NCBI RefSeq assembly: GCF_009831105.1
Contig: NZ_WUUQ01000003.1
Span: 30,001 to 62,000 of the forward strand
From: Copranaerobaculum intestinale
GTDB lineage: Bacteria > Bacillota_I > Bacilli_A > Erysipelotrichales > Erysipelotrichaceae
Reading direction: 5' to 3'
Length of the DNA stretch: 32,000 nt
This document shows positions 6,054 through 32,000 of the stretch, in pieces. Each line of letters begins with the position of its first letter. Position 1 is the stretch's first letter. Made by a program: the position numbers and the translations under genes. A model generated the notes under the pieces. It did not search any database. It was given only the letters and a program-made list of their open reading frames with translations, and had not been told where the DNA came from.

Positions 6054-6554
6054 ATGCAGGAGGAAGTGGAAAACAGGACTTTGACGCTGGTAGTCAGCGG
6101 AACAAAGTTTACCGGGCGGTTGATGAAAGCCGCCATCACCAAGTACCTTGCCCACCGCAAGGAAAAGAAGCTGCAAAAGCAGAGAAGCCGTGATGCGCCT
6201 GTGAAGCCCCAGGGCAAGCAGACGGTGAAACAGCTGATTGGTCAAAACCAAGGGGTTTCCAACATTGAGATCACCGACCCCTCCATCAAGGAGTTTGAGA
6301 AGATCGCCCGGAAATACGGCGTGGACTATGCGGTGAAGAAGGACCGCAGCAGCTCCCCACCCAAGTACCTGATCTTTTTCAAGGGTCGGGACGCGGATGC
6401 CCTGACCGCTGCTTTTACCGAGTACACCGGGAAAAAGGTCAGGAAGGCGGAGAAATCCGAGCGTCCGTCTGTGTTGGCAAAGTTGAGCCAGTTCAAAGAG
6501 CTGGTGAAACACGCCGTCGTGGACCGGAACAAGCGGAAGGAGCTGGAACGATGA
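6054..6554 (+). CDS. pcfB: PcfB-family (DUF3801) conjugation protein
   Basis: The position immediately upstream of the coupling protein is characteristic. The sequence has TLVVSGTKFTGRLMKAAI...IKEFEKIARKYGVDYAVKKD...YLIFFKGRDADAL. GGAGG lies 9 nt upstream. Confidence 0.7.
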   Translation: MQEEVENRTLTLVVSGTKFTGRLMKAAITKYLAHRKEKKLQKQRSRDAPVKPQGKQTVKQLIGQNQGVSNIEITDPSIKEFEKIARKYGVDYAVKKDRSSSPPKYLIFFKGRDADALTAAFTEYTGKKVRKAEKSERPSVLAKLSQFKELVKHAVVDRNKRKELER

Positions 6555-8074
6555 AAAAGCAGCTGAACATCAAAAAGCTCATTTTGCTGAACCTGCCGTA
6601 TATCCTGATGGGGCTTTTCTCCACCAACTTCGGTGAAGCGTGGCGGATGGCCGTGGGTGCGGACGCTTCGGCAAAAATGCTCTCGTTCTTCTCCACGCTG
6701 CCGGTGGCGCTGACCAGCTGGTGGCCCAGCCTGCACTCGCTGGACCTGCTGGTGGGCCTGTGCTGCGGCGGCGGCCTGCGGCTGGCTGTGTACCTGAAAA
6801 GCAAGAACGCCAAGAAGTACAGGCACGGCATTGAATACGGTTCGGCCTGCTGGGGAACCCGTGAGGATATTGCACCTTACGTTGATCCTGTATTTCAGAA
6901 CAACGTGATTCTGACGAAAACAGAGAGCCTGACAATGAACAGCCGCCCCAAGGACCCCAAGACCGCCAGAAACAAAAATGTGCTGGTGATCGGCGGCTCC
7001 GGTTCCGGTAAGACCCGATTCTGGCTGAAACCCAACCTGATGCAGATGCACAGTTCCTATGTTGTGACGGACCCGAAAGGAACAATTCTTGTGGAGTGCG
7101 GAAAAATGCTCCAGCGGGGCGCACCCAAGCTGGGGAAAGACGGAAAGCCTATGAAGGATAAGCACGGCAAGGTCATTTATGAGCCGTACCGAATCAAGGT
7201 CCTAAATACCATCAACTTCAAGAAGTCCATGCACTATAACCCTTTCGCCTATATCCATAGCGAAAAGGACATCTTGAAGCTGGTAACAACGCTGATCGCT
7301 AATACCAAAGGTGAAGGCAAGGCCGGAGACGATTTCTGGGTAAAAGCAGAAACCTTGTTGTACTGCGCGCTTATTGGCTATATCCATTATGAGGCTCCGG
7401 TGGAGGAACAAAACTTCTCCACCCTCATTGAGTTCATCAACGCCATGGAAGTCCGTGAGGATGACGAGGAGTTCAAAAACCCCGTAGACCTGATGTTTGA
7501 TGCACTGGAAGCCGAGAAGCCAAACCACTTTGCGGTGCGCCAGTATAAGAAATATAAGCTGGCCGCTGGAAAAACAGCCAAGTCGATTTTGATTTCCTGC
7601 GGCGCTCGCCTTGCCGTGTTCGACATTGCAGAGTTGCGTGAGGTCACGGCTTATGATGAGCTGGAGCTGGATACTCTGGGAGACAGGAAAACTGCTCTGT
7701 TCCTCATTATGAGTGATACGGATGACAGCTTTAACTTCCTGATCTCCATGTGTTATACCCAGCTTTTCAATCTGCTCTGCGAAAAAGCCGACGATGTGTA
7801 TGGCGGCAGGCTTCCGGTTCATGTGCGCTGTTTGATTGATGAGTGTGCTAACATCGGGCAGATTCCGAAACTGGAAAAGCTGGTGGCCACCATCCGAAGC
7901 CGTGAGATCTCTGCCTGTCTGGTGTTGCAGGCACAGAGTCAGCTCAAGGCGATCTATAAGGATAACGCAGATACCATCATCGGCAACATGGATACATCCA
8001 TCTTCCTGGGCGGTAAAGAGCCGACTACCCTCAAAGAGTTGGCTGCCGTGCTGGGAAAGGAAACCATCGACACC
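6551..8074 (+). CDS. traG: Type IV coupling protein (VirD4/TraG family), exon 1 (aa 1-508)
   Basis: N-terminal TM helices, Walker A VLVIGGSGSGKTRF and Walker B-like VRCLIDECANIG. The homology ends exactly at ...GKETIDT, where GTGCG begins. ATGA overlap with pcfB. Confidence 0.9.
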
Positions 8075-8649
8075 GTGCGCCCAGATAGGGCGTTGAGCAA
8101 AGTAGTGTAAGGCACTACCCCGTAAGATAACACGGGAAACAACCTGCCTAACCGAAAGGCGAAAGCTGAAACGGGAACACAGCACGGCAGGAAAGCAGTA
8201 AGTCACCTAAAGATAACTTGGTGCGACTGAACTGCAATGTTAAGTGGATATGAGGCTTAAGTTGGGTTTACTGAACGCAAGTTTCTAATTTCTGTTATCG
8301 GTCAGACGGAGGAAAGTATCTGTAACCTCTGGCACACTGGCGATTGGTTATAGGTGTCAATCAATCGGTTATCAAAAACGGTGTGCAATCTGTAGGAGAA
8401 CCTATGGCAAGGAAACGAAAGCGGAGACCGACAATCCACATTTGCCTATGCTCAACGCTAACTGGGGATGCCCTAAACAGGAACGCCAACCGAAGGAGGT
8501 GAAAATTCGGCTATGGCTGTAGAGCCTGAAAATCCTGCATGGGCACGGAACGCCCGTAGTAGTCCGAGAGGGGTAATGACCCTCACATGGCGAAGGGGCG
8601 TAGTTATTGTGTACTAAAAGAAAAGTTGATTAGGGAGGAAAACCTCAAA

Positions 8650-10449
8650 ATGCAACCAACAACCGAAATTTTAGCAAGAATCAGTAGAAACTCACTCGCA
8701 AATAAAGATGAAATTTTTACCAGACTGTATCGCTATATGCTGAGGCCAGACCTGTATTTTCTGGCATATAAAAATCTGTATGCCAACAGTGGTGCCGCAA
8801 CTAAGGGTGCAAACGATGACACGGCAGATGGATTCAGCGAAGCCAAAATCGCAAATATCATCCAAAGGCTCGCTGATGAAACCTACCAGCCCACACCCGC
8901 CAGAAGAACCTATATCCAGAAGAAGAACAATCCCAAGAAAAAGCGACCTCTGGGAATCCCGACATTCACAGATAAGCTGGTACAGGAAGTTCTGCGGATG
9001 GTTCTCGAAGCGGTGTATGAGCCTGTTTTCTTGCCAGTTTCCCATGGATTCAGACCCAAAAGGAGCTGCCATACCGCACTGAAATCCTTAAAAATGGAGT
9101 TCAATGGTATGCGTTGGTTCGTGGAGGGTGACATCAAAGGGTGCTTTGACAATATCGACCACAGCGTTCTTGTAGGCTTGATTCATAGTAAAATCAAGGA
9201 TGCCCGGTTGATAAAGCTGATTTACAAATTTCTAAAGGCTGGATATTTGGAGGATTGGAAATATCACAAAACCTACAGTGGTACTCCACAGGGCGGTATC
9301 ATTTCTCCGCTCCTTGCTAACATCTATCTGCATGAGCTGGACAAATTTGTAATGAAGCTGAAAAGCGAATTTGATACCCATGGGCAAGAACCTGTCAGGA
9401 CAGAATATCGCCTCCTAAGCAATGACCTCCAGAAACTTTCCTATCACATCGGCAGACGCACCGGGGCAGAAAGAGAACAACTGCTTTCCGAATACAACGA
9501 AAAGCGGAAGCTCATGCTGAAAATGCCCTGTACAGCTCAGACAAAAAAGTGCATCAAGTATATCCGCTATGCGGATGACTTTATTCTCGGTGTGAAAGGA
9601 AGTCAAGAGGACTGCCAGTGGATAAAGAGTAAACTTTCTGAGTTTATCCGTGAAACCTTAAAGATGGAACTCAGCGAAGAAAAAACACTCATCACTCACA
9701 GCAGCGAAAGGGCAAGATTTTTGGGGTATGATGTTCGTGTTCGCAGAAGCAGCATTATCAAGCATGGTGGGCCAGGCAAAAAGACAAAACGCACCCTCAA
9801 CAATTCCTGTGAACTGTCTATCCCATTCGATGATAAGATTCACAGCTTCATTTTCGCCAAGGAAATTGCGATACAGAAACCGGATGGGAAACTCATGCCT
9901 GTCCGCCGTAAATCTCTTTTGCGACTCACAGATTTGGAAATCGTTTCTGCCTACAATGCGGAACTGCGGGGAATCTGCAACTACTATGGAATTGCCAGCA
10001 ATTTTTATAAACTGTGCTACTTTTCCTATCTCATGGAATACAGTTGCCTCAAAACCCTCGCAAGTAAGCATAAATGCACCATAGCCAAGGTGGTTGAGAA
10101 ATTCAAAGACCACTACGGAGAATGGGGAATCCCCTACGAAACCAAAACGGGGCAAAAACGATGCTATTTTGCAAAATACTCCGATTGCAAGGATAAGGCC
10201 AATCCGACGGACATCGTATGCAATGCTGCGGTGGAGTACGGATATTCCCGAACAGCCTTGGAGCAGAGATTGAAAGCAAAGGTCTGTGAGCTATGCGGTA
10301 CGACCGAGAGCGATTGTTACGAAGTTCACCATGTCAACAAGCTCAAAAACCTTAAGGGCAAGCAGGCATGGGAGGTTGCAATGATTGCAAAACGGCGTAA
10401 AACGCTGGTTGTGTGCAAAAAATGCCATGTTGCAATCCACAACCAGTGA
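8650..10449 (+). CDS. Group II intron-encoded protein: reverse transcriptase / maturase (X) / HNH endonuclease
   Basis: RT blocks are RPLGIPTFTDKLVQE, GDIKGCFDNIDH, GTPQGGIISPLLANIYL and IRYADDFILGV (YADD). The X domain has YNAELRGICNYYGIASNF. The C-terminal HNH is CELCG...EVHHVNKL...VCKKCHVAIH. ATG 8650 follows GGGAGGA. Confidence 0.95.
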   Translation: MQPTTEILARISRNSLANKDEIFTRLYRYMLRPDLYFLAYKNLYANSGAATKGANDDTADGFSEAKIANIIQRLADETYQPTPARRTYIQKKNNPKKKRPLGIPTFTDKLVQEVLRMVLEAVYEPVFLPVSHGFRPKRSCHTALKSLKMEFNGMRWFVEGDIKGCFDNIDHSVLVGLIHSKIKDARLIKLIYKFLKAGYLEDWKYHKTYSGTPQGGIISPLLANIYLHELDKFVMKLKSEFDTHGQEPVRTEYRLLSNDLQKLSYHIGRRTGAEREQLLSEYNEKRKLMLKMPCTAQTKKCIKYIRYADDFILGVKGSQEDCQWIKSKLSEFIRETLKMELSEEKTLITHSSERARFLGYDVRVRRSSIIKHGGPGKKTKRTLNNSCELSIPFDDKIHSFIFAKEIAIQKPDGKLMPVRRKSLLRLTDLEIVSAYNAELRGICNYYGIASNFYKLCYFSYLMEYSCLKTLASKHKCTIAKVVEKFKDHYGEWGIPYETKTGQKRCYFAKYSDCKDKANPTDIVCNAAVEYGYSRTALEQRLKAKVCELCGTTESDCYEVHHVNKLKNLKGKQAWEVAMIAKRRKTLVVCKKCHVAIHNQ

Positions 10450-10473
10450 GTAACTGCTGACCGAACGATAACA

Positions 10474-10568
10474 GAGCCGGATACATTGAGAGATGTAAGT
10501 CCGGTTCCCGGAGAGGGTGGTGCGAACCTACCATAGTAATATGGCAAGGCGGTGCCTCCCTACTCCAC
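10474..10568 (+). ncRNA. Intron ribozyme domains V and VI
   Basis: GAGCCGGATACATT-GAGA-GATGTAAGTCCGGTTC is a 34-nt domain V with the AGC triad and a tetraloop. GGAGAGGG...CCCT(A)CTCC forms the domain VI helix with a bulged branch-point A. Confidence 0.85.
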
Positions 10569-21471: not shown

Positions 21472-24400
21472 ATGGCAGAGAATGTATTTGAAGCAGTCAA
21501 GCTGTCAGTCAGCACCAGAGAAGCGGCAGAGTTTTATGGGATAAAAGTCAGGCGAAATGGCATGGCCTGCTGTCCTTTTCACGATGATAAGAACCCCAGC
21601 ATGAAGGTAGACCAGCGGTTCCACTGCTTTGGCTGCGGTGAAGATGGGGATGTGATCGACTTTACCGCAAAGCTCTTTGACCTCTCCCCAAAAGAAGCGG
21701 CGGAGAAACTGGCACAGGACTTTGGCCTGATCTATGACAGTCAGGCCCCGCCCCGCAGGAGATATGTCCGGCAAAAAACCGAGGCACAGAAGTTTCGGGA
21801 GGATCGACAGCGCTGTTACCGTGTACTGTCCGATTACTACTATCTGCTGAAAAAATGGGAAGCCGACCGTTCTCCCAGGACACCGGAGGAAGAACCGCAC
21901 CCCCGCTTTGTGGAAGCAATCCAGAAGAAAACCTATGTAGAGTACCTGCTGGACCTTTTTCTTTATGAAAGTGAAGAAGAACAAAAGGCATGGATTGCAG
22001 AACACACAGCAGAAATCACACACTTGGAAAGGAGATTGAAAATCATGGCTGAGAATAAACCCACCAACCGAGAACGGCTAAGGGAAATCACAGATGGCAT
22101 CGAGCAGGGTATCAAAGAACTGTTTGAAAGCGAAAAGTATATGCGTTATCTGTCCGTCATGTCCCGATTTCACCGCTATTCGGTAAACAACACCATGCTC
22201 ATCTATATGCAGAAGCCGGACGCCACTTTGGTAGCCGGATACAATAAGTGGAAAGACCAGTTTGAGCGTCATGTAAAAAAGGGCGAGCATGGCATTACCA
22301 TCATTGCCCCCACACCGTATAAGAAGAAAATCGAGGAGCAGAAACTGGACCCGGATACCAAGGCTCCGATTCTGGATAAAGACGGAAAGATCGTCACAGA
22401 GGAAAAAGAAATCGAAATCCCCATGTTTCGTCCGGTCAAGGTCTTTGATGTGAGCCAGACCGACGGGAAACCTTTGCCGGAGCTTGCTTCCTCCCTTTCC
22501 GGCAATGTGCCAAATTATGAGGCATTCATGGAGGCTCTGCGCCGCAGTGCGCCGGTGCCGATCACTTTTGAAGCAATGGCCGCCGATACGGACGGCTATT
22601 TTTCTGCCGATCATCAGAAAATCGCCATTCGTCAGGGCATGAGTGAGGTGCAGACGGTTTCGGCCACAGTACACGAGATTGCCCACAGCAAGCTCCACAA
22701 TCAGAAAAAGATTCAGATTGCCAATGACGAGCAATATCAGGAGATCGAGCTGTTTGATAAACCCGGTCTGTTCTCCAATGGGCGGATTGTCCGTGATAAT
22801 CTGCCGGAGGGCGTTTATTGCTATGACCTGTGCGGTTCTGACTACGACCCCGGAGAGCCGGTCTGTGTAGAAGAACAAGTAGTTGTAAACCATGCAGGTT
22901 CCGTTCTGCTGACAGAGCCGCTGGAGCTGGCGGAAGATGGACGCCTGATGCTGACCGAGGAAGAAGGGCTGAATTTTGTTGGCGGCTTTTCTACCCTCAC
23001 CCAGTTTTTGCAAGAACAGAGGAAAGACCGCCACACGGAGGAAGTGGAGGCTGAAAGCATCTCCTATGCGGTCTGCAAATATTTTGGCATTGAGACCGGA
23101 GAAAACAGCTTCGGCTATATTGCAAGCTGGAGTCAGGGCAAGGAACTGAAAGAGCTGAGAGCCAGTTTGGAGACCATCAATAAGACCTCCGGCACTTTGA
23201 TCTCTGACATTGAGCGCCACTATAAGGAAATCTGCAAAGAGCGTGGGATTGATCCCCATGCAAAGGCAGAGCCGGAAACCGCCCCGATAGAGCAGCCAAC
23301 CGGCAATCTGACTTACTATGTGGCAGAGTGCATGGAGTTTCCAAACCTCGGAGAATACCACGATAACCTGTCTTTGGAGGAGGCGGTCCGCATCTATCAG
23401 GAAATTCCGGCAGAGCGAATGAACGGGATCAAAGGAATTGGTTTTGAGCTGAAAGACGGAAGCGACTATGAAGGACCGTTTCCGATTTTGACCGGGCAGA
23501 CCATTGACCTGGACACTATTCAGGCAATCGACTATTACCGTGACAATCCGCTGGTACAGAAAGCGGTAAAGGAACTGGCTGCGACCATGCCGGAAATGGA
23601 GGTACTGGGGGCGGATGCCAACCAGCAGGAGGCTTTGTTTCTGATCAACGATACTACCTATCTTCATATCCAGCCTTGTGACAGCGGATGGGACTACACT
23701 CTTTACGATGCTGCGTCCATGAAAGAGCTGGATGGTGGTCAGCTGGATATGTCGGAGCTTTCCCGCAAAAATGCAGTTCTCCAGATTTGTGATGACAACA
23801 ATCTGGACAGCACTTCGCTCAGACACGCTCCTATGTCCATGATTGAGACCTTGCAGGAAGCGGCCTATCAGCAAATGCAGGCAGAGACCAGTCAGATGAT
23901 TGCTTCTTCCCAGTTGCCGGAGGCACAGGAGCAGGCACTGGATGAATACCCCATGCCGGATGAGCAGGTCTCCACACCGGATATGCAGGAATATGGCTAC
24001 TCCTATGATGGGATGCTCCCTGTTACCAGAGAACGGGCGCTGGAACTGGATGCCGCCGGTTTGACCGTCTATGTGCTGCATGAGGACAATACGGAGAGCA
24101 TGGTGTTTGACCCGCAGGAAATCATGGATCATGGCGGTCTTTTCGGTGTGGACCATGAGGAATGGGAGAAAAGCCCTCAGTTCCACGAAAAGGTCATGGA
24201 GCGTCAGGAACATCAGCAGGAACGCGAACAGGCATTTCTATCCCAGAACAGAGATTGCTTTGCCATCTATCAGGTGAGCCGTGACGATCCGCAGAATGTG
24301 CGCTTTATGAATCTGGATTGGTTAAAGTCCCATGACATTTCCATAGACCGCAGCAATTATGACCTCATTTACACAGCTCCGCTAAGTGCGTCTGGCACTG

Positions 24401-24840
24401 TGCCGGAGCAGTTGGAAAAACTCTATCAGCAATTCAATCTGGAAAAGCCCGTGGACTTTCGCAGTCCCTCCATGAGTGTCAGTGACATCGTTGCGATCAG
24501 ACAGGACGGTAAGGTATCCTGTCATTACTGTGACAGTGTTGGCTTTACCCAGATCCCCGGATTTCTGCCGGAAAATCCGCTGAAAAATGCGGAGATGGCC
24601 GTGGAGGATGATTACGGCATGATCGACGGTATCATCAATAATGGCGTAAAGGAACCTACGGTGGCAGAGCTGGAACAGCAGGCCCGCAGCGGTCAGCCCA
24701 TTTCCCTGATGGATCTGGCTGCCGCTGCCCATCGGGAGGAACGGGAAAAGAAAAAGTCCGTCATGGAGCAGCTGAAAAGCCAGCCCAAGGCAGAACACAA
24801 AAAGACAGCGCCCAAAAAGAGTGCGGAAAGGGAGATTTGA
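21472..24840 (+). CDS. Polyvalent protein: CHC2 primase zinc finger + ArdC-N-like ssDNA-binding domain + HExxH metallopeptidase + YodL-like and DUF4316-like C-terminal modules
   Basis: CCPFHDDKNPSMKVDQRFHCFGCGEDGDVIDF at 21568-21663. YSVNNTMLIYMQKPDATLVAGYNKWKDQFERHVKKGEHGITIIAP at about 22138-22310. HEIAH at 22672-22686. CFAIYQVSRDDPQNVRFMNLDWL at about 24255. AVEDDYGMIDGIINNG at about 24600. Confidence 0.85.
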   Translation: MAENVFEAVKLSVSTREAAEFYGIKVRRNGMACCPFHDDKNPSMKVDQRFHCFGCGEDGDVIDFTAKLFDLSPKEAAEKLAQDFGLIYDSQAPPRRRYVRQKTEAQKFREDRQRCYRVLSDYYYLLKKWEADRSPRTPEEEPHPRFVEAIQKKTYVEYLLDLFLYESEEEQKAWIAEHTAEITHLERRLKIMAENKPTNRERLREITDGIEQGIKELFESEKYMRYLSVMSRFHRYSVNNTMLIYMQKPDATLVAGYNKWKDQFERHVKKGEHGITIIAPTPYKKKIEEQKLDPDTKAPILDKDGKIVTEEKEIEIPMFRPVKVFDVSQTDGKPLPELASSLSGNVPNYEAFMEALRRSAPVPITFEAMAADTDGYFSADHQKIAIRQGMSEVQTVSATVHEIAHSKLHNQKKIQIANDEQYQEIELFDKPGLFSNGRIVRDNLPEGVYCYDLCGSDYDPGEPVCVEEQVVVNHAGSVLLTEPLELAEDGRLMLTEEEGLNFVGGFSTLTQFLQEQRKDRHTEEVEAESISYAVCKYFGIETGENSFGYIASWSQGKELKELRASLETINKTSGTLISDIERHYKEICKERGIDPHAKAEPETAPIEQPTGNLTYYVAECMEFPNLGEYHDNLSLEEAVRIYQEIPAERMNGIKGIGFELKDGSDYEGPFPILTGQTIDLDTIQAIDYYRDNPLVQKAVKELAATMPEMEVLGADANQQEALFLINDTTYLHIQPCDSGWDYTLYDAASMKELDGGQLDMSELSRKNAVLQICDDNNLDSTSLRHAPMSMIETLQEAAYQQMQAETSQMIASSQLPEAQEQALDEYPMPDEQVSTPDMQEYGYSYDGMLPVTRERALELDAAGLTVYVLHEDNTESMVFDPQEIMDHGGLFGVDHEEWEKSPQFHEKVMERQEHQQEREQAFLSQNRDCFAIYQVSRDDPQNVRFMNLDWLKSHDISIDRSNYDLIYTAPLSASGTVPEQLEKLYQQFNLEKPVDFRSPSMSVSDIVAIRQDGKVSCHYCDSVGFTQIPGFLPENPLKNAEMAVEDDYGMIDGIINNGVKEPTVAELEQQARSGQPISLMDLAAAAHREEREKKKSVMEQLKSQPKAEHKKTAPKKSAEREI

Positions 24841-24841
24841 T

Positions 24842-25057
24842 ATGGGAAACTTTACTTTTGAGGAAATGAACCTGATGTGCATTTACAATACCGGTAGCCG
24901 CACCGGACTGATCGACAGCCTGCGTGAGATGCGCGGCGAGCTGGCCCCGGAGGAAACCGAGCTGCGGGAGTTGACAGACAGCGCACTGGGCAAGCTCCAG
25001 GCCATGAGTGATGCCGAGTTTGCCGAGCTGGAGTTGTATCCGGATTTTGACCAGTAA
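24842..25057 (+). CDS. Transposon-transfer-assisting (TTRAP-like) small protein
   Basis: MGNFTFEEMNLMCIYNTGSRTGLIDSLREMRGEL... ATG 24842 follows AAAGGGAG. Confidence 0.6.
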   Translation: MGNFTFEEMNLMCIYNTGSRTGLIDSLREMRGELAPEETELRELTDSALGKLQAMSDAEFAELELYPDFDQ

Positions 25058-25076
25058 ACACTATAATCGCAGGGAT

Positions 25077-25106
25077 GGGGTGGCAATATGCCACCCCACC
25101 TTTTTA
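25077..25106 (+). terminator. Rho-independent terminator
   Basis: GGGGTGGC (25077-25084) pairs with GCCACCCC (25090-25097), followed by ACCTTTTT. Confidence 0.7.
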
Positions 25107-25135
25107 CCCCAAAACTGAAAGGAGGACAGAACACT

Positions 25136-28100
25136 ATGCCAACCAAAGCTGAACTATATGCACAGATGGCGGAGAAGGTAACAACGCAGCTCACGGGGAG
25201 CTGGCAGGAATGGGCAGGGTTTCTCACCACTGCTTCCCGACTTTACAAGTACCCGTTCCATGAGCAGTTGATGATCTACGCCCAGCGTCCGGACGCCACC
25301 GCCTGTGCAGAGTACGATTTGTGGAATGAAAAGATGGGCCGGTATGTAAGGCGCGGCTCCAAGGGAATTGCTCTGGTGGACGATTCCGGGGACAGGCCCC
25401 GCCTGCGCTATGTTTTTGATATTTCCGACACCGGAACCCGTGAACATTCCCGCACTCCCTGGCTGTGGCAGCTGGAGGAGAGCCATTTGGATTCGGTGCA
25501 GGCCATGCTTGAGCGCACCTATGATGTTTCCGGTGATGACCTTGCCGGACAGCTCACCGAGGTAGCCGGAAAACTGGCTGAGAAATACTGGACGGAGCAT
25601 CAGCAGGACTTCTTCTATATCGTTGACGGTTCCTTTTTGGAGGAATATGATGAGTATAACATCGGAGTGCAGTTCAAGGCAGCCGCCACCGTCAGCATCA
25701 CTTACGCTTTGATGTCCCGCTGTGGACTGGAGCCGGAACGCTACTTCGACCACGAAGATTTCATGGCGATCTTTGATTTCAACACCCCGTCCACCATCGG
25801 GGCGCTGGGAACAGCGGTCAGCCAGATCAACCAGCAGGTGCTGAGGCAGATCGGCGTTACCGTCCGAAATGCAGAGCGCGAAGCCAACCAAGAAAGGAGC
25901 AAACAAGATGAACAATCCCATGACCTATATCCAGAACGGAGACTATCTGATTCCCGACCTGAAGCTGAGCCAGCAGCCGGAGAAACCCTTGGGCAAGTAC
26001 GGAAGGATGAGGAAAACCTACCTGAAGGAACACCGTCCCATCCTCTACAACCAGATGCTGCTGAGCGAGAAGCTGTACCCGCACCTTCTGGAGATCGACG
26101 AGACCGCCCAGAGCAGACTGGAGCAGATGATGCCCCAGCTGGCGAAGGAAGCGGGAGCCACCGAGGAACTGAAAGCCAGCGATCCCATGAAGTGGGTGGG
26201 GCTGATGAACACCTGCAAAGCTCAGGCCGAGGAAATCCTGATGGCGGAGCTTATCAACAGCTGACCCTAAACCTGTTCCTTTCCGAAGCGGAGCAGATCC
26301 AATCCATAGATGAAGCAGAGAATGTAGCGCATACATCCTCTGCTTTTTCTTTTGCCCAAAATGATATTGACCATGTGCTGCGTTTGGGCGGCAATACAGA
26401 TCGTCAGAGGGAGCGTGTGGTTGCAGCATTTGAAAAGCAGAAAACCACCGCTGAGATTGCCGAGATACTGAAAACGCTGTACCACGGCGGCAACGGCCTT
26501 GGCAGTGTGAGTGCATGGTATGCCGAGGATGGTATCCATCTTTCCCACGGGAAGTCTGTCCGTTATGACAGGTCTGCCCAGGTCATTTCCTGGGAGAGTG
26601 CCGCAGAGCGCATCGGGGAACTTTTGGAAAGTGGCCAGTTTGCCTCCAATGTGGAGCTTGCAGAAGCGGCAGGCTATGAACGCTCCCTCCTTGCAGAAAA
26701 ACTTTGGCATCTGTACCACGATTTCAGCGATAAAGCCAGAGATTCCGGGTATCTGTCCTGTCTGTCCGGTATTCAGAGAACCGGGTTCCCGGAAGAAACT
26801 GCATGGCTTGCCGAGCAGCTGAGTGACCCGGCTTTCCGCCAGACCCTCAAGGAAGAATACGCCGCCTTCTGGACTGCCTATCAGCAGGACCGTGACCTGT
26901 TGCGCTTTCATTACCATAGGCCAAGGGAAATTTGGGAGAACCTGAAGGATCTTGACCTGCCACGCAGAACTTTTTCTTCGGACCTTTCCCAAGTGCCAAT
27001 CGTCCAGCACTTTATTACCGAGGATGAGATCGACGCCGCCATGACCGGCGGAAGCAGTTTCGCCGGAGGAAAAGGCCGTATCTATGCGTTCTTCATGGCA
27101 AACCATACGGATAAGGAGAAAGTGAGATTCCTCAAAGACGAGTATGGCATTGGCGGACGCTCTCATGCCTTGTCCGGCGCAACACACAGCGGCGAAGATC
27201 ACGATGGGAAAGGACTGCACTATAAAAAGCAGGACTGCCCGGATGTTCACTTGAACTGGGAAAAGGTTGCCAAGCGCATTACCTCACTTGTCCAGAAAGA
27301 CCGCTATCTTACCGAACAGGAACAGGCGCAGTATGACAAAATCCAGGCTGAAAAGGAACTGGCAGAAGAAGATGTCATTCAAACACAGCAGCCGGAGGTG
27401 GAGAAAGAAACGCCAAAGCCTATCCTTCGGGAGCAGTTTGAGCAGTATAAGCCTGTGGTGACTGCCGCTATTTCCGAGGATGCCGCATACCGCAATGCCT
27501 GCGGGCATTCTGACCGTGAAAATGCTGTCATCGAGGGCAATGCCGCTGTGCGCCGTGCGGTTCTTGGTTCTAAGGATATGGAGCTGATCCGACTCTATTC
27601 GGATGTGCCGGAGTTCCGTCAGCGTCTGCACCGGGAAGTGATCGACGAGACCTATCCAAAGCTCCATGAACTTCTGCGCCCTCTTTCTCAGGAAGATATT
27701 GATACTGCCCTTTGTGCATGGAACGGCAATATCGAGAGTAAACACGCTGTTGTCCGCTATATGAAAGACCATGCAAGAGAAAAAGATACCGCCGCATGGC
27801 TGGCTCAGGAATACGGCGGCAGTAACAGCAACAGCCTGTTCGTTGTCCGTGCCGGCAGCCCGGAGGAAACGCAGCTGCCCTGGACGAAGGTACAGCGCAG
27901 GCTTGCCCAGCTCATTCAGGAGGACCGGTTCTATACCGAAGAAGAACAGGACCGTTTTGACGACATCGACCCCATCGCCATCCGGGAAGCTCTGGAGGAA
28001 AGAGGGATCGTCAACGGCCAGGTGGCAGACCCGGAAAAACTGGACAATGATCCGTTTATCCAACAGGTGATGTCGGATGTAGAGCAGATCGCAGCTGCTG

Positions 28101-31100
28101 AGACAGAGCAGACTTCCGAAGTTGCTATTTCCGATGAGGAATATGATGCAGTTCGCCGCCCAATTCCGCAAAGAACATCCTATGACCCAGCTGCCCCGGT
28201 CTATGCCGTGGGCGATACCGTGTATATCGAGGATGACGCCTATCAGATCACCGAGCTGCGGGAGGACACCGTACAGCTTCTGCCCACCGGGATGGTATAT
28301 CCCATCTACCGGGCAGAGCGCAAAGAACAGTTCGAGCAGCTGCTTCGGGCAGACCGCCGCAATGCTTACTATACCGAGTTTCTTCCTACTGACCCGGACA
28401 AGGCAGATCAGGACTTGCGGGATGTATTGGCTCATGGACTGATGGATGAAGCGGATAAAAAGCAGATTTCCACGCTGCTGCAATCCGGCAGGAGCAACAG
28501 CGAGATCGCCTACTGGCTGAGCAGAGCCTATTCCGGTGAGATCGAGACACTGAATCTGGAGACCGGCGATATTGCCGATTACCGTACCACGGCACAGGGC
28601 ATAGAACTGGAAGTCATGGATGCAGAGGAAAAGCGTCTGGCTATGCTGTATTTCCGCTGGGATGAGGTTGCGCCTTTGCTGCGCGGGATGTATGCCCGTC
28701 AGCAGGACGGTTTTGGACAGGAACAGCCCCAACCGGCTGCCGAATCCCCGGCCTTCCATTCCGAGACTGTGGCCGTCTATCCGGGCGATAAGAACAATCT
28801 GCCTTATGATGTGGTGGTGGAACGACTGCATATCGAGGAGCCGGAGCCGCCAGCCCCTGTGACTGAGCCGGAGAAAACCTTTGAGGAAGTGTTGGATGAA
28901 CACCCGGTTTCCATTCAGGTCAATGGCCAGTGGCAGACCTTTCCCAATGCCAAAGCTGCCGAGGAAGCATCTTATGAGGAATACAAGGCTAACCTGCGCC
29001 GCAATGCAAAAAACTTCCGCATTACCGATGAGCATTTGGGCGAAGGCGGTCCGAAAGCCAAGTTCCAGGCAAATGTCAATGCGATTCGTTTGCTGAAAGA
29101 GCTGGAAGCTGCCGGACAGCAGGCAAGCCCCGAACAGCAGGAGGTTCTTTCTCGATACGTGGGCTGGGGCGGTCTCTCTGATGCCTTTGACCCGGAGAAA
29201 CCGGCATGGGCTTTAGAGTATGCCCAGCTGAAAGAGCTGCTGACCACGGAGGAATATGCCGCCGCCAGAGGCTCCACCTTAAACGCCCATTACACCAGCC
29301 CTACGGTCATTCAGGCCATCTATGAAGCGGTGGACCGTATGGGATTTGAGACCGGAAATATTCTGGAGCCGTCTATGGGTGTGGGCAATTTCTTTGGTAT
29401 GCTGCCGGAGAAAATGCGAAACAGCCATTTGTACGGTGTGGAGCTGGACCCGGTTTCCGGGCGCATCGCAAAGCAGCTCTATCCCAAGGCGGACATCACA
29501 GTAGGCGGCTTTGAGACCACAGACAGGCGTGACTTCTTTGACCTTGCCATCGGCAATGTGCCGTTCGGTCAGTATCAGGTCAATGACAAAGCCTACAACA
29601 AGCTGAATTTCAGTATTCATAACTATTTTTTTGCCAAAGCACTCGACCAGGTGCGTCCCGGCGGTGTGGTAGCTTTTGTGACCTCTCGATATACCATGGA
29701 CGCCAAGGATTCCACCGTGCGCCGCTATCTTGCCCAGCGTGCTGAGCTGCTGGGAGCTATCCGTCTGCCTAATGACGCGTTCAAAAAGAATGCCGGTGCC
29801 GAGGTGGTATCGGACATCATCTTCCTCCAAAAACGGGACCGCCCGTTGGACATCGTGCCGGAATGGACCCAGACCGGACAGACGGAGGACGGGTTTGCCA
29901 TCAACCGGTATTTTATCGACCACCCGGAAATGGTGCTGGGCAGACAGGAGCCGGTAAGCACTGCACATGGTATGGACTACACCGTGAACCCCATCGAGGG
30001 ACTGAAGCTTTCCGACCAGCTGCATGATGCTGTGAAGTACATTCATGGCACTTATCAGGAGGCAGAGCTGCCGGAGCTGGGCGAAGGCGAAGCCATTGGC
30101 ACCTCCATTCCTGCCGATCCTAATGTGAAGAACTATTCTTATGCCATTGTAGACGGGCAGGTGTACTACCGGGAAAACAGCCGTATGGTGCGCCCTGACC
30201 TCAACACCACCGCAGAAGCCCGCGTAAAAGGTCTTGTGGGACTGCGTGATTGTGTGCAGGAACTGATCGACCTTCAGATGGATGCAGCGGTTCCAGACAG
30301 CACCATTACCCAAAAGCAGGCGGAACTGAACAGCCTCTATGACAGCTTTTCTGCCAAATACGGTCTCATCAATGACCGTGCAAACCGTCTGGCCTATGCA
30401 GACGATTCTTCCTATTACCTGCTCTGTGCGATGGAAGTCATCGACGAGGACGGAAAGCTGGAGCGCAAGGCAGATATGTTCACCAAGCGGACCATCAAGC
30501 CCCATCAGGCGGTGGCTGTGGTGGATACGGCAAGTGAAGCACTGGCGGTGTCCATCTCGGAAAAAGCCTGCGTGGATATGGACTATATGAGCCAGCTTAC
30601 CGGAAAAACAAAAGAAGAACTGGCCGGAGAGCTGCAAGGCGTAATCTTCCGTGTACCGGGACAGTTGGAGCAGGACGGAACGCCCCATTATGTGACCGCC
30701 GATGAATACCTTTCCGGCAATGTACGCCGCAAACTGCGTCAGGCGCAGCGGGCCGCACAGCAGGACCCGGTTTATGCAGTCAATGTGGAAGCTCTTAGCG
30801 CCGCCCAGCCCAAAGACCTGGATGCGTCGGAGATCGAGGTGCGTCTGGGCGCTACCTGGATCGACAAAGAGTACATCCAGCAGTTTATGTACGAAACCTT
30901 CAACACCCCGTTTTATCTCCAGCGCAGTATCGAGGTCAACTATTCGTCCTTTACCGCTGAATGGCAGATCAAGGGGAAATCTTCCGTATCCTACAACGAT
31001 GTGGCAGCCTACACCACCTACGGAACCAGCCGTGCCAATGCCTACAAGATTTTGGAGGACAGCCTGAACCTGCGGGATGTCCGTATCTATGACACCATAG

Positions 31101-32000
31101 AGGACGCAGACGGAAAAGAGCGCCGCGTGCTGAACGCCAAGGAGACCACCCTGGCTGCCCAAAAGCAGCAGGCTATCCGGGAAGCCTTCAAGGACTGGAT
31201 CTGGAGAGACCCGGAGCGCCGACAGACTCTGGTGCGCCAGTACAACGAGGAAATGAACTCCACCCGTCCCCGCGAGTATGATGGCAGCCACATCACTTTT
31301 GGGGGCATGAACCCGGCCATTACCCTGCGGGAACATCAGCTGAATGCCATTGCCCATGTGCTGTATGGCGGTAATACTCTGCTGGCACACGAAGTGGGCG
31401 CAGGCAAAACATTTGAGATGGTGGCCTCTGCGATGGAGGCTAAACGCCTGGGCTTATGCCAGAAATCTCTCTTTGTGGTTCCAAACCACCTGACCGAGCA
31501 GTGGGCGTCGGAGTTTCTGCGCCTCTATCCTTCTGCCAACATCTTAGTCACAACCAAAAAGGACTTTGAGACCCATAACCGCAAAAAGTTCTGCGCCCGT
31601 ATTGCCACCGGTAACTACGACGCCATCATCATGGGACACAGCCAGTTTGAGCGTATCCCCATCAGCCGGGAGCGTCAGGAACGGCTTCTCTATGAACAGA
31701 TCGACGAGATCACCGAGGGCATCGCAGAGGTGCAGGCCAGCGGCGGCGAGCGTTTTACCGTCAAGCAGCTGGAGCGTACCAGAAAGTCTCTGGAAGCCAG
31801 ACTGGAAAAGCTGCAAGCCGAGGGGCGAAAAGACGATGTGGTAACCTTCGAGCAGCTGGGTGTGGACCGTTTGTTTGTGGACGAGGCCCACAACTATAAA
31901 AACCTGTTTCTATACACAAAAATGCGGAATGTGGCTGGTCTTTCCACATCGGACGCGCAGAAATCCTCCGATATGTTTGCCAAGTGCCGCTATATGGATG
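25136..32000 (+). CDS. Giant polyvalent protein (more than 2288 aa, 3' end outside the window): ArdC-N-like domain, four diverged repeat modules, N6-adenine DNA methyltransferase, SNF2/DEAD helicase
   Basis: This gene is not in the ORF track because its frame (phase 2) has no stop before nt 32000. Every listed + ORF after 25136 is in phase 0. ATG 25136 lies 9-10 nt after GAAAGGAGGA. The ArdC-like part is YKYPFHEQLMIYAQRPDATACAEYDLWNEKMGRYVRRGSKGIAL. MTase motif I is ILEPSMGVGNFF (about 29357-29397) and motif IV is NVPF (29555-29566). The helicase has AHEVGAGKT (31391-31411) and DEAH (31880-31891). Confidence 0.85.
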   Translation, partial: MPTKAELYAQMAEKVTTQLTGSWQEWAGFLTTASRLYKYPFHEQLMIYAQRPDATACAEYDLWNEKMGRYVRRGSKGIALVDDSGDRPRLRYVFDISDTGTREHSRTPWLWQLEESHLDSVQAMLERTYDVSGDDLAGQLTEVAGKLAEKYWTEHQQDFFYIVDGSFLEEYDEYNIGVQFKAAATVSITYALMSRCGLEPERYFDHEDFMAIFDFNTPSTIGALGTAVSQINQQVLRQIGVTVRNAEREANQERSKQDEQSHDLYPERRLSDSRPEAEPAAGETLGQVRKDEENLPEGTPSHPLQPDAAEREAVPAPSGDRRDRPEQTGADDAPAGEGSGSHRGTESQRSHEVGGADEHLQSSGRGNPDGGAYQQLTLNLFLSEAEQIQSIDEAENVAHTSSAFSFAQNDIDHVLRLGGNTDRQRERVVAAFEKQKTTAEIAEILKTLYHGGNGLGSVSAWYAEDGIHLSHGKSVRYDRSAQVISWESAAERIGELLESGQFASNVELAEAAGYERSLLAEKLWHLYHDFSDKARDSGYLSCLSGIQRTGFPEETAWLAEQLSDPAFRQTLKEEYAAFWTAYQQDRDLLRFHYHRPREIWENLKDLDLPRRTFSSDLSQVPIVQHFITEDEIDAAMTGGSSFAGGKGRIYAFFMANHTDKEKVRFLKDEYGIGGRSHALSGATHSGEDHDGKGLHYKKQDCPDVHLNWEKVAKRITSLVQKDRYLTEQEQAQYDKIQAEKELAEEDVIQTQQPEVEKETPKPILREQFEQYKPVVTAAISEDAAYRNACGHSDRENAVIEGNAAVRRAVLGSKDMELIRLYSDVPEFRQRLHREVIDETYPKLHELLRPLSQEDIDTALCAWNGNIESKHAVVRYMKDHAREKDTAAWLAQEYGGSNSNSLFVVRAGSPEETQLPWTKVQRRLAQLIQEDRFYTEEEQDRFDDIDPIAIREALEERGIVNGQVADPEKLDNDPFIQQVMSDVEQIAAAETEQTSEVAISDEEYDAVRRPIPQRTSYDPAAPVYAVGDTVYIEDDAYQITELREDTVQLLPTGMVYPIYRAERKEQFEQLLRADRRNAYYTEFLPTDPDKADQDLRDVLAHGLMDEADKKQISTLLQSGRSNSEIAYWLSRAYSGEIETLNLETGDIADYRTTAQGIELEVMDAEEKRLAMLYFRWDEVAPLLRGMYARQQDGFGQEQPQPAAESPAFHSETVAVYPGDKNNLPYDVVVERLHIEEPEPPAPVTEPEKTFEEVLDEHPVSIQVNGQWQTFPNAKAAEEASYEEYKANLRRNAKNFRITDEHLGEGGPKAKFQANVNAIRLLKELEAAGQQASPEQQEVLSRYVGWGGLSDAFDPEKPAWALEYAQLKELLTTEEYAAARGSTLNAHYTSPTVIQAIYEAVDRMGFETGNILEPSMGVGNFFGMLPEKMRNSHLYGVELDPVSGRIAKQLYPKADITVGGFETTDRRDFFDLAIGNVPFGQYQVNDKAYNKLNFSIHNYFFAKALDQVRPGGVVAFVTSRYTMDAKDSTVRRYLAQRAELLGAIRLPNDAFKKNAGAEVVSDIIFLQKRDRPLDIVPEWTQTGQTEDGFAINRYFIDHPEMVLGRQEPVSTAHGMDYTVNPIEGLKLSDQLHDAVKYIHGTYQEAELPELGEGEAIGTSIPADPNVKNYSYAIVDGQVYYRENSRMVRPDLNTTAEARVKGLVGLRDCVQELIDLQMDAAVPDSTITQKQAELNSLYDSFSAKYGLINDRANRLAYADDSSYYLLCAMEVIDEDGKLERKADMFTKRTIKPHQAVAVVDTASEALAVSISEKACVDMDYMSQLTGKTKEELAGELQGVIFRVPGQLEQDGTPHYVTADEYLSGNVRRKLRQAQRAAQQDPVYAVNVEALSAAQPKDLDASEIEVRLGATWIDKEYIQQFMYETFNTPFYLQRSIEVNYSSFTAEWQIKGKSSVSYNDVAAYTTYGTSRANAYKILEDSLNLRDVRIYDTIEDADGKERRVLNAKETTLAAQKQQAIREAFKDWIWRDPERRQTLVRQYNEEMNSTRPREYDGSHITFGGMNPAITLREHQLNAIAHVLYGGNTLLAHEVGAGKTFEMVASAMEAKRLGLCQKSLFVVPNHLTEQWASEFLRLYPSANILVTTKKDFETHNRKKFCARIATGNYDAIIMGHSQFERIPISRERQERLLYEQIDEITEGIAEVQASGGERFTVKQLERTRKSLEARLEKLQAEGRKDDVVTFEQLGVDRLFVDEAHNYKNLFLYTKMRNVAGLSTSDAQKSSDMFAKCRYMD
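25908..26264 (+). CDS. tnpV: TnpV-family protein, nested out of frame inside the giant ORF
   Basis: MNNPMTYIQNGDYLIPDLKLSQQPEKPLGKYGRMRKTYLKEHRPILYNQMLLSEKLYPHLLEIDETAQSRLEQMMPQLAKE...ASDPMKWVGLMNTCKAQAEEIL matches my memory of TnpV proteins of clostridial transposons. It has its own RBS, GAAAGGAG, 7 nt upstream. Confidence 0.75.
   Translation: MNNPMTYIQNGDYLIPDLKLSQQPEKPLGKYGRMRKTYLKEHRPILYNQMLLSEKLYPHLLEIDETAQSRLEQMMPQLAKEAGATEELKASDPMKWVGLMNTCKAQAEEILMAELINS

Follow-up and report, generated by a model that had tools for sequence, protein, structure and literature searches.

An out-of-frame tnpV gene nested in the predicted linker region of a giant polyvalent protein gene on a conjugative element of Copranaerobaculum intestinale

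Complete genes lying in an alternative frame of another gene occur in phages, where Rz1 is nested in Rz of lambda, and E and B are nested in D and A, respectively, of phiX174; in these pairs both frames are kept, and one of them is typically compositionally odd or disordered. Characterised out-of-frame nested genes of bacteria are very few and mostly shorter than 50 residues, and comS, nested out of frame in srfAB of Bacillus subtilis, is one of them (PMC11230408). Here we describe an arrangement of this kind in a stretch of 32,000 nucleotides (nt) of the Copranaerobaculum intestinale genome (assembly GCF_009831105.1, contig NZ_WUUQ01000003.1, positions 30,001 to 62,000 of the forward strand), which is called the window below, is numbered 1–32000 and belongs to a conjugative element. 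In this window a giant open reading frame (ORF) encoding a polyvalent protein contains a complete tnpV gene in a different frame of the same strand. We consider it quite probable that the two form a conserved nested pair, in which a single messenger RNA (mRNA) yields both a giant polyvalent protein, one linker of which is specified by the -1 frame of tnpV, and an internally initiated TnpV.

The resemblance to comS/srfAB is close, because in both cases a very large multidomain gene fully encloses a small one that reads in another frame of the same strand; comS uses a start of its own and is transcribed together with its host gene, and the same appears to apply to tnpV. However, comS encodes only 46 residues and is restricted to Bacillus, whereas tnpV encodes a 118-residue protein of a Pfam family that also exists in standalone form, and its nesting is conserved across mobile elements of Clostridia and Bacilli. 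Moreover, the host frame of tnpV corresponds to a predicted disordered, unconstrained linker and not to part of an enzymatic domain. With Rz1/Rz and the phiX174 pairs the locus shares a complete gene in the alternative frame of another gene on a mobile element, but those phages have compact genomes under size pressure, whereas the host of tnpV is a conjugative element tens of kilobases long, and here it is the outer, larger gene that carries the unconstrained frame. The standalone TnpVs of Tn4451 and Tn4453 belong to the same family (PF14198) and are likewise tied to mobile elements of Firmicutes; unlike the nested gene, standalone tnpV genes are not overlapped, and stops interrupt their -1 frame. 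Polyvalent proteins of conjugative elements were described by Iyer et al. (2017; PMC5512222), in a paper that does not mention TnpV, overlapping genes or linkers. The giant protein resembles them in being a multidomain methylase and SNF2 helicase encoded on an element with a type IV secretion system, beside another polyvalent protein, but differs from them in an N-terminal domain that matches no LPD or ArdC Pfam family. Our literature search found no paper linking TnpV with nesting or overlap. The kind of arrangement is known from the systems named above, and for the nesting of tnpV we found no earlier description in the literature searched.

Expressed as phase (position modulo 3), the giant ORF (25136–32000, plus strand) is in phase 2. 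The last stop in this phase is located at 25064–25066, after which the frame is stop-free to base 32000, and the ORF runs off the window end with more than 2288 codons. It starts with ATG 25136, where homologue calls made by others also begin (their alignments set in at query residue 2, which is Met 25136), and the Shine-Dalgarno (SD) sequence GAAAGGAGG, read from the sequence at 25117–25125 on the plus strand, precedes this codon by 10 nt. The tnpV gene (25908–26264, plus strand, phase 0) comprises 118 codons and a TGA stop and lies wholly inside the giant ORF, so that the two ORFs share a strand, differ in frame and are nested one within the other. Its SD sequence, GAAAGGAG (25892–25899, plus strand), is situated 8 nt before the ATG within the giant-frame codons Glu-Arg-Ser; the SD of the giant ORF is almost the same string. 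The tnpV product matches Pfam TnpV (PF14198) over positions 1–111 of the 111-position model (E = 2.8e-44; 150.1 bits vs a cut-off of 27), and no TnpV model match was obtained in NCBIfam. A sequence-only reading of the window had proposed a TnpV-like phase-0 ORF of 118 codons with its own ribosome-binding site, to be given up should the ORF fail to match TnpV profiles, and both the sequence and the strong PF14198 match bear this proposal out. It had further described a giant frame that passes through tnpV without a stop, a low-complexity peptide in the overlap, and the absence of any restart signal behind tnpV. Each of these holds on re-examination: from 25065 onwards phase 2 is stop-free as far as the window end, Pro, Glu, Gly, Arg, Asp and Ser abound in the overlap peptide, which is devoid of Ile, Phe, Trp, Met and Cys, and behind the tnpV stop phase 2 offers no ATG, GTG or TTG that is preceded by an SD.

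When the first 636 residues of the giant protein were used as a protein query, 3237 clusters were returned, the best 120 of which were examined (52–98% identical over the aligned part). All homologues among them that reach the linker align through it, with the exception of two partial-deletion variants (P0029 and P0110). A genome scan using one genome per species confirmed 497 relatives, and the best 80 loci, which derive from Lachnospiraceae, Oscillospiraceae, Ruminococcaceae and others and are 51–97% identical over the same 636 residues, were examined. All 80 contain an intact tnpV (62–100% identity) in the same place, the giant frame being the TnpV frame plus 2 and open throughout. The same nesting with an open giant frame was found behind a homologous N-terminal domain in five more distant plasmid loci with a content of guanine plus cytosine (GC) of 25–56%. 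These are located on two Subdoligranulum plasmids, whose nested TnpVs are 52% and 39% identical to that of the window, on plasmids of Cohnella (class Bacilli; 48%) and Monoglobus (45%), and on the Clostridium botulinum plasmid pGA0702E1CS (34%; locus GC 25%). Hence, both frames are open in 85/85 nested loci, and the identities of TnpV and of the N-terminal domain co-vary across the nested lineages (Spearman 0.78), which indicates that the arrangement is old. Near-identical DNA was not found in plasmids.

As more than 85 independent assemblies share the structure, an assembly indel was excluded as its cause; the sequence-only reading had raised the concern that an indel separates what are really split genes. 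It had also considered a phase-2 stop before 25908 in homologues, and no homologue has one. Its question whether homologues lack about 120 residues at this site is answered in the negative, since apart from the two partial deletions only a single divergent contig (L092:41-1897, Logan SRR24136775) is without the linker and tnpV. This contig lacks the equivalent of 25838–26260 (141 codons), between CAR-CAG...CTGA (Gln-Gln/CTGA) microrepeats, and its N-terminal domain is joined straight to the downstream domain, which provides independent support that both domains belong in one polypeptide. The variant is probably a deletion, because 21 conserved residues of the N-terminal domain have been lost as well. 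In the same contig the giant ORF is also split into genes of 618 and 1685 residues.

Selection was analysed in 57 non-redundant loci, with pairwise ratios of nonsynonymous to synonymous substitution rates (dN/dS) obtained from simplified scripts. At giant codon positions 1/2/3 the mean pairwise diversity is 0.20/0.15/0.43 in the N-terminal domain and 0.29/0.22/0.48 downstream of the overlap, but 0.32/0.18/0.12 in the overlap itself. Followed in intervals of 60 nt, this codon-position pattern flips at the interval starting at 25914 and flips back at the one starting at 26274; read in the TnpV frame, variability in the overlap is lowest at codon position 2 and highest at position 3. In the giant frame dN/dS is 0.04–0.17 for the N-terminal domain and 0.08–0.31 for the downstream part, whereas the overlap has values of 0.11–0.25 in the TnpV frame and about 2.0–2.3 in the giant frame. 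An overlap-aware partition in the style of OLGenie gave omega values of 0.12–0.24 for TnpV and 1.2–1.9 (dNN/dNS) for the giant frame. Thus, by these comparisons TnpV is the constrained protein in the overlap, and in the giant frame constraint mainly concerns the absence of stops. When sequence pairs were grouped by the identity of their flanks, the synonymous rate (dS) of TnpV amounts to 0.62–0.68 of that of the flanks, a drop of 32–38% (bootstrap range 0.44–0.86 in two bins and 0.41–1.03 in the third), which indicates a modest second constraint. Suppressed synonymous variation in both frames, which the sequence-only reading had proposed as a check, was consequently found in part: TnpV shows it, but no purifying selection on the amino acids of the giant frame within the overlap was found in the 57 loci.

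Whether the open giant frame exceeds chance was assessed by shuffling synonymous codons within each tnpV, which retains the protein and the gene's own codon usage. Shuffled versions of the window gene contain on average 2.9 giant-frame stops and are stop-free in only 2.9% of cases. None of 31 diverse nested genes has a giant-frame stop, with per-gene P values of 0.002–0.38, except for the uninformative L050 (P = 1, expected 0). Two further lineages are likewise stop-free, the C. botulinum plasmid with P = 0.0002 and the other with P = 0.49; the former is AT-rich and the sharpest case, with 4.4 stops expected and 0 seen. Over all 33 nested genes 0 stops compare with 0–5 expected per gene (about 1–5 in all but two), and the product of the per-gene values over 23 well-diverged lineages, if these are treated as independent, gives a combined P of ~1e-30. 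The other alternative frame of nested tnpV contains 6–19 stops, and six standalone tnpV genes have 3–14 stops in the -1 frame, near their own shuffle expectation. In the window gene, T is depleted at third positions of TnpV codons (0.08 vs 0.19–0.23 elsewhere).

An independent initiation signal for the inner gene appears to be present. The motif GA[AG][AG]GGA[GCT] stands exactly 8 nt before the tnpV ATG in 60/60 non-redundant nested loci, and it is conserved at positions that are synonymous in the outer frame, whereas the 8-nt spacer varies freely. The motif also includes AGG, which among the Arg codons of the giant ORF is the least used (11/153). On the side of the outer protein, an AlphaFold model of giant residues 1–636 shows helices up to residue 259 that resume at residue 385, ~20 nt past the tnpV stop. 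The intervening residues 257–383 have no secondary structure and a predicted local distance difference test (pLDDT) score of mostly 26–38 (block means up to 45). This predicted disorder corresponds to nucleotides ~25901–26281, which is almost exactly the span of tnpV.

Taken together, the proposed dual coding would operate as follows. The giant gene would be translated straight through in phase 2 from ATG 25136, its conserved N-terminal domain (25136 to ~25906, plus strand) being followed by a disordered linker of ~125 residues (25901–26281, plus strand), which is encoded by the -1 frame of tnpV and connects this domain to the remaining part of the protein. TnpV would be a separate protein, translated inside the same mRNA from its own SD and ATG. 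Selection would act on the amino acids of TnpV and, in the giant frame, essentially only against stops, which could be avoided by shunning T-ending TnpV codons before AA, AG or GA; stop avoidance alone would suffice, because a linker needs length and flexibility but not a particular sequence. The single continuous giant polypeptide favoured by the sequence-only reading is supported by the open frame in all relatives examined, the constrained flanks and the L092 fusion. Both products would actually be made, and the nesting would tie TnpV synthesis to transcription of the transfer-region operon. Candidate tryptic peptides are LSDSRPEAEPAAGETLGQVR and DEENLPEGTPSHPLQPDAAER for the linker and TYLKEHRPILYNQMLLSEK for TnpV. 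The support for dual coding is comparative throughout, and several points weigh against it. Firstly, the linker frame is without amino-acid constraint, and the case for its translation consists of stop avoidance and the need to join two constrained domains. Secondly, single genes of GC-rich lineages reach only modest shuffle P values (up to 0.49, with one gene uninformative), and the test draws its strength from a combination of lineages that are not entirely independent of each other. Thirdly, the C. botulinum tnpV has no obvious SD, and ribosomes may initiate poorly at a site within an ORF that is itself being actively translated.

With regard to the origin of the pair, GC at codon positions 1/2/3 of the overlap is 0.55/0.31/0.82 in the TnpV frame, which is normal, and 0.82/0.55/0.32 in the linker frame, which is aberrant. 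The contrast points to an earlier origin of the TnpV frame; the giant gene would then have come about when two genes on either side of a tnpV were fused across it, and an ancient capture of tnpV may also have been the origin. Alternatively, nesting might be ancestral to the whole TnpV family, which would then have arisen, or at least diversified, in the linker region, the standalone genes representing repeated escapes. A neighbour-joining tree in which standalone TnpVs are interspersed among nested ones, together with the correlated divergence of TnpV and the N-terminal domain, is compatible with escape from an ancestral nested state. However, the codon-position composition weighs against a birth of TnpV in place and favours tnpV as the older frame, and we regard ancestral nesting as rather unlikely. 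If it were true, TnpV synthesis would depend on and compete with the ribosome traffic on the giant ORF, and the nesting would serve as a translational switch by which excision or transfer is coupled to the production of the polyvalent protein.

Existing annotations of the locus suggest a different gene structure. In the large protein collection, gene calls give a continuous giant ORF from Met 25136, and calls of TnpV come mainly from short contigs or from NCBI records. For near-identical elements the NCBI records contain three genes, namely a 255-residue minus-strand gene over the N-terminal domain, TnpV and a truncated giant protein. In L087-L089 the last of these is called from 72 nt before the tnpV stop, corresponding to GTG 26192–26194 (plus strand) of the window, where no conserved start signal was seen; elsewhere a later start is used. 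The giant products of near-identical elements have 2575 residues and are still without the N-terminal part. On the Monoglobus plasmid TnpV is annotated and an SNF2-related protein begins 1.9 kb downstream of tnpV, and on the C. botulinum plasmid the Prokaryotic Genome Annotation Pipeline (PGAP) reports a continuous protein of 2220 residues and no TnpV. The expectation that standard annotators would report one of the two genes is thus borne out, as gene-call sets disagree between the giant ORF alone and TnpV with a truncated giant protein. Taken at face value, the three-gene records, with which the Monoglobus annotation agrees, would mean that the N-terminal region (or the antisense ORF) is expressed apart, that tnpV is a normal gene and that the giant protein starts at GTG 26192 or later, the open phase 2 being incidental. 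This is very improbable, since the N-terminal domain is strongly constrained in phase 2 and stop-free, so that translation must run on through tnpV. Moreover, in all lineages the full 119 codons of phase 2 are free of stops, not just those past 26192, and both L092 and the C. botulinum annotation show continuous proteins. The start at GTG 26192 is accordingly taken as an annotation artefact. The antisense ORF (25154–25921, minus strand, 255 codons), which is called as a gene in L086-L089, was rejected as a real gene and judged a spurious shadow ORF: it is broken by 1–4 stops in 23/57 non-redundant loci, in all of which the plus frame is open, and its codon position 1 coincides with the most variable position of the plus strand.

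Programmed frameshifting would explain the overlap in yet another way. SD-like elements inside coding regions can stimulate frameshifting, as in prfB and dnaX, and the internal SD of the giant ORF could be such an element, so that a +1 shift near it would yield an N-terminal domain::TnpV fusion or a -1 shift near the 3' end of tnpV a TnpV::giant fusion, with tnpV as a recoded domain. A few database proteins are indeed fusions of the N-terminal domain to TnpV (P0361 and P0410). However, the only one inspected in DNA, P0361 on the 2.4-kb contig L093 (L093:425-1552), is due to a single 1-nt indel early in tnpV, which creates a fusion ORF of 375 residues and is likely an error or a mutant; the linker frame of this contig stays open in the third frame. 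Furthermore, no slippery heptamer of the type X XXY YYZ occurs in the TnpV frame in 57 loci, and recoding would make an open phase 2 needless, yet phase 2 stays open. The invariant ATG and 8-nt spacing, the free spacer and the lack of a slippery heptamer fit ordinary internal initiation and do not fit recoding, which we therefore consider highly unlikely. Least probable, and already largely disproved, is a recent arrival of tnpV as a passenger cassette, or its presence as a decaying relic, with the open host frame a short-lived accident: although standalone tnpV genes travel with cargo and resistance modules and L092 lacks the segment between microrepeats, the site and the frame of the arrangement are identical in all 85 other nested loci, TnpV diverges in step with the N-terminal domain and is under purifying selection in place, and the additional loss of conserved residues makes L092 look more like a deletion. 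Of the two alternatives offered by the sequence-only reading, genuine dual coding is consequently supported, whereas the cassette, as a recent insertion, was rejected, because the arrangement is universal among the relatives examined.

For TnpV of Tn4451 an Xis-like role as an excision factor has been postulated, and only postulated (PMC3158075). An AlphaFold model of the window TnpV (pLDDT 83.6) consists of a beta-hairpin followed by five helices, and neither a sequence match nor a fold match was found in the PDB, so that the Xis-like role is without support from a solved structure. The standalone TnpVs of Tn4451/Tn4453-type mobilisable transposons and of resistance modules are 34–57% identical to that of the window. 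In L097, L098 and the plasmid matches H13-H29, standalone tnpV adjoins insertion sequence elements and the resistance genes aac(6')-Ie/aph(2'')-Ia and tet(O/W/32/O); plasmids carrying it come from Salmonella, Klebsiella, Campylobacter, Streptococcus and Enterococcus, which indicates that tnpV has travelled far outside Clostridia. Further protein searches with TnpV retrieved mostly close relatives (71–98% identical) and provide no unbiased ratio of nested to standalone genes. Two 207-residue proteins (P0121 and P0122, on contigs of <1.2 kb) score 423 bits against the 118-residue TnpV query, ~2x the value of a single copy, and may be tandem or assembly duplicates.

The giant protein consists, in this order, of the N-terminal domain, the linker, further domains, an Eco57I-type methylase and the start of an SNF2/ResIII helicase, the distal part having Pfam matches to the methylase as well as to ResIII, SNF2-rel_dom and DEAD. 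Several unrelated effector domains are thus combined in one ORF on a conjugative element, which is characteristic of polyvalent proteins. Named LPD or ArdC-N Pfam domains were not found in the giant ORF or its N-terminal domain. The N-terminal domain (first ~257 residues) retrieved 5125 cluster representatives at E <= 0.001, but it has no match in Pfam, in PDB sequences or to PDB folds with Foldseek, and an ArdC-like identity was therefore dropped. ArdC-N is instead present in a first polyvalent protein (21472–24840), two genes upstream of the giant ORF, together with a primase zinc ribbon, a weak metallopeptidase match, LPD28, LPD16, YodL and DUF4316. The small ORF between the two (24843–25057) occupies the position taken in related loci by a gene that matches TTRAP (PF14203). 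A terminator-like hairpin with a T-run at 25076–25098, upstream of the giant ORF, was the only notable site in a promoter and terminator scan around the locus, in which counts were no higher than in shuffles, and Rfam had no match inside the overlap. The remainder of the window is likewise that of a conjugative element, encoding ParB, a DUF6017 protein, a type IV coupling protein, TrbL/VirB6-like and VirB4-like proteins and a CHAP hydrolase, and also a DNA topoisomerase (Topoisom_bac and Toprim domains). In the region 6551–10568 a group II intron lies after the coupling-protein gene, with an ORF for a reverse transcriptase/maturase/HNH protein at 8587–10449 and the Rfam match Intron_gpII at 10472–10568. 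It probably splits the coupling-protein gene (6551–8110), because the Pfam matches of the latter stop short of the model ends.

Thousands of conjugative elements of gut Firmicutes appear to be inconsistently annotated at the tnpV locus. In NCBI records the conserved N-terminal domain is not called, and a spurious antisense gene appears instead; inconsistent calls of this kind distort domain architectures, protein-family statistics and pangenome counts. Beyond these systematic annotation errors, the nesting of tnpV is notable for the length of the inner gene, for its phylogenetic depth (at least 85 loci, from Clostridia to Bacilli and from 25% to about 56% GC) and for its clear selection signatures. 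It constitutes a natural system, replicated in many lineages, for the study of two frames that share one sequence, and it illustrates how a disordered linker can be encoded by out-of-frame read-through of another gene. Finally, the nesting offers a handle on the function of TnpV, a protein for which being produced alongside the polyvalent methylase-helicase must be either tolerable or advantageous.

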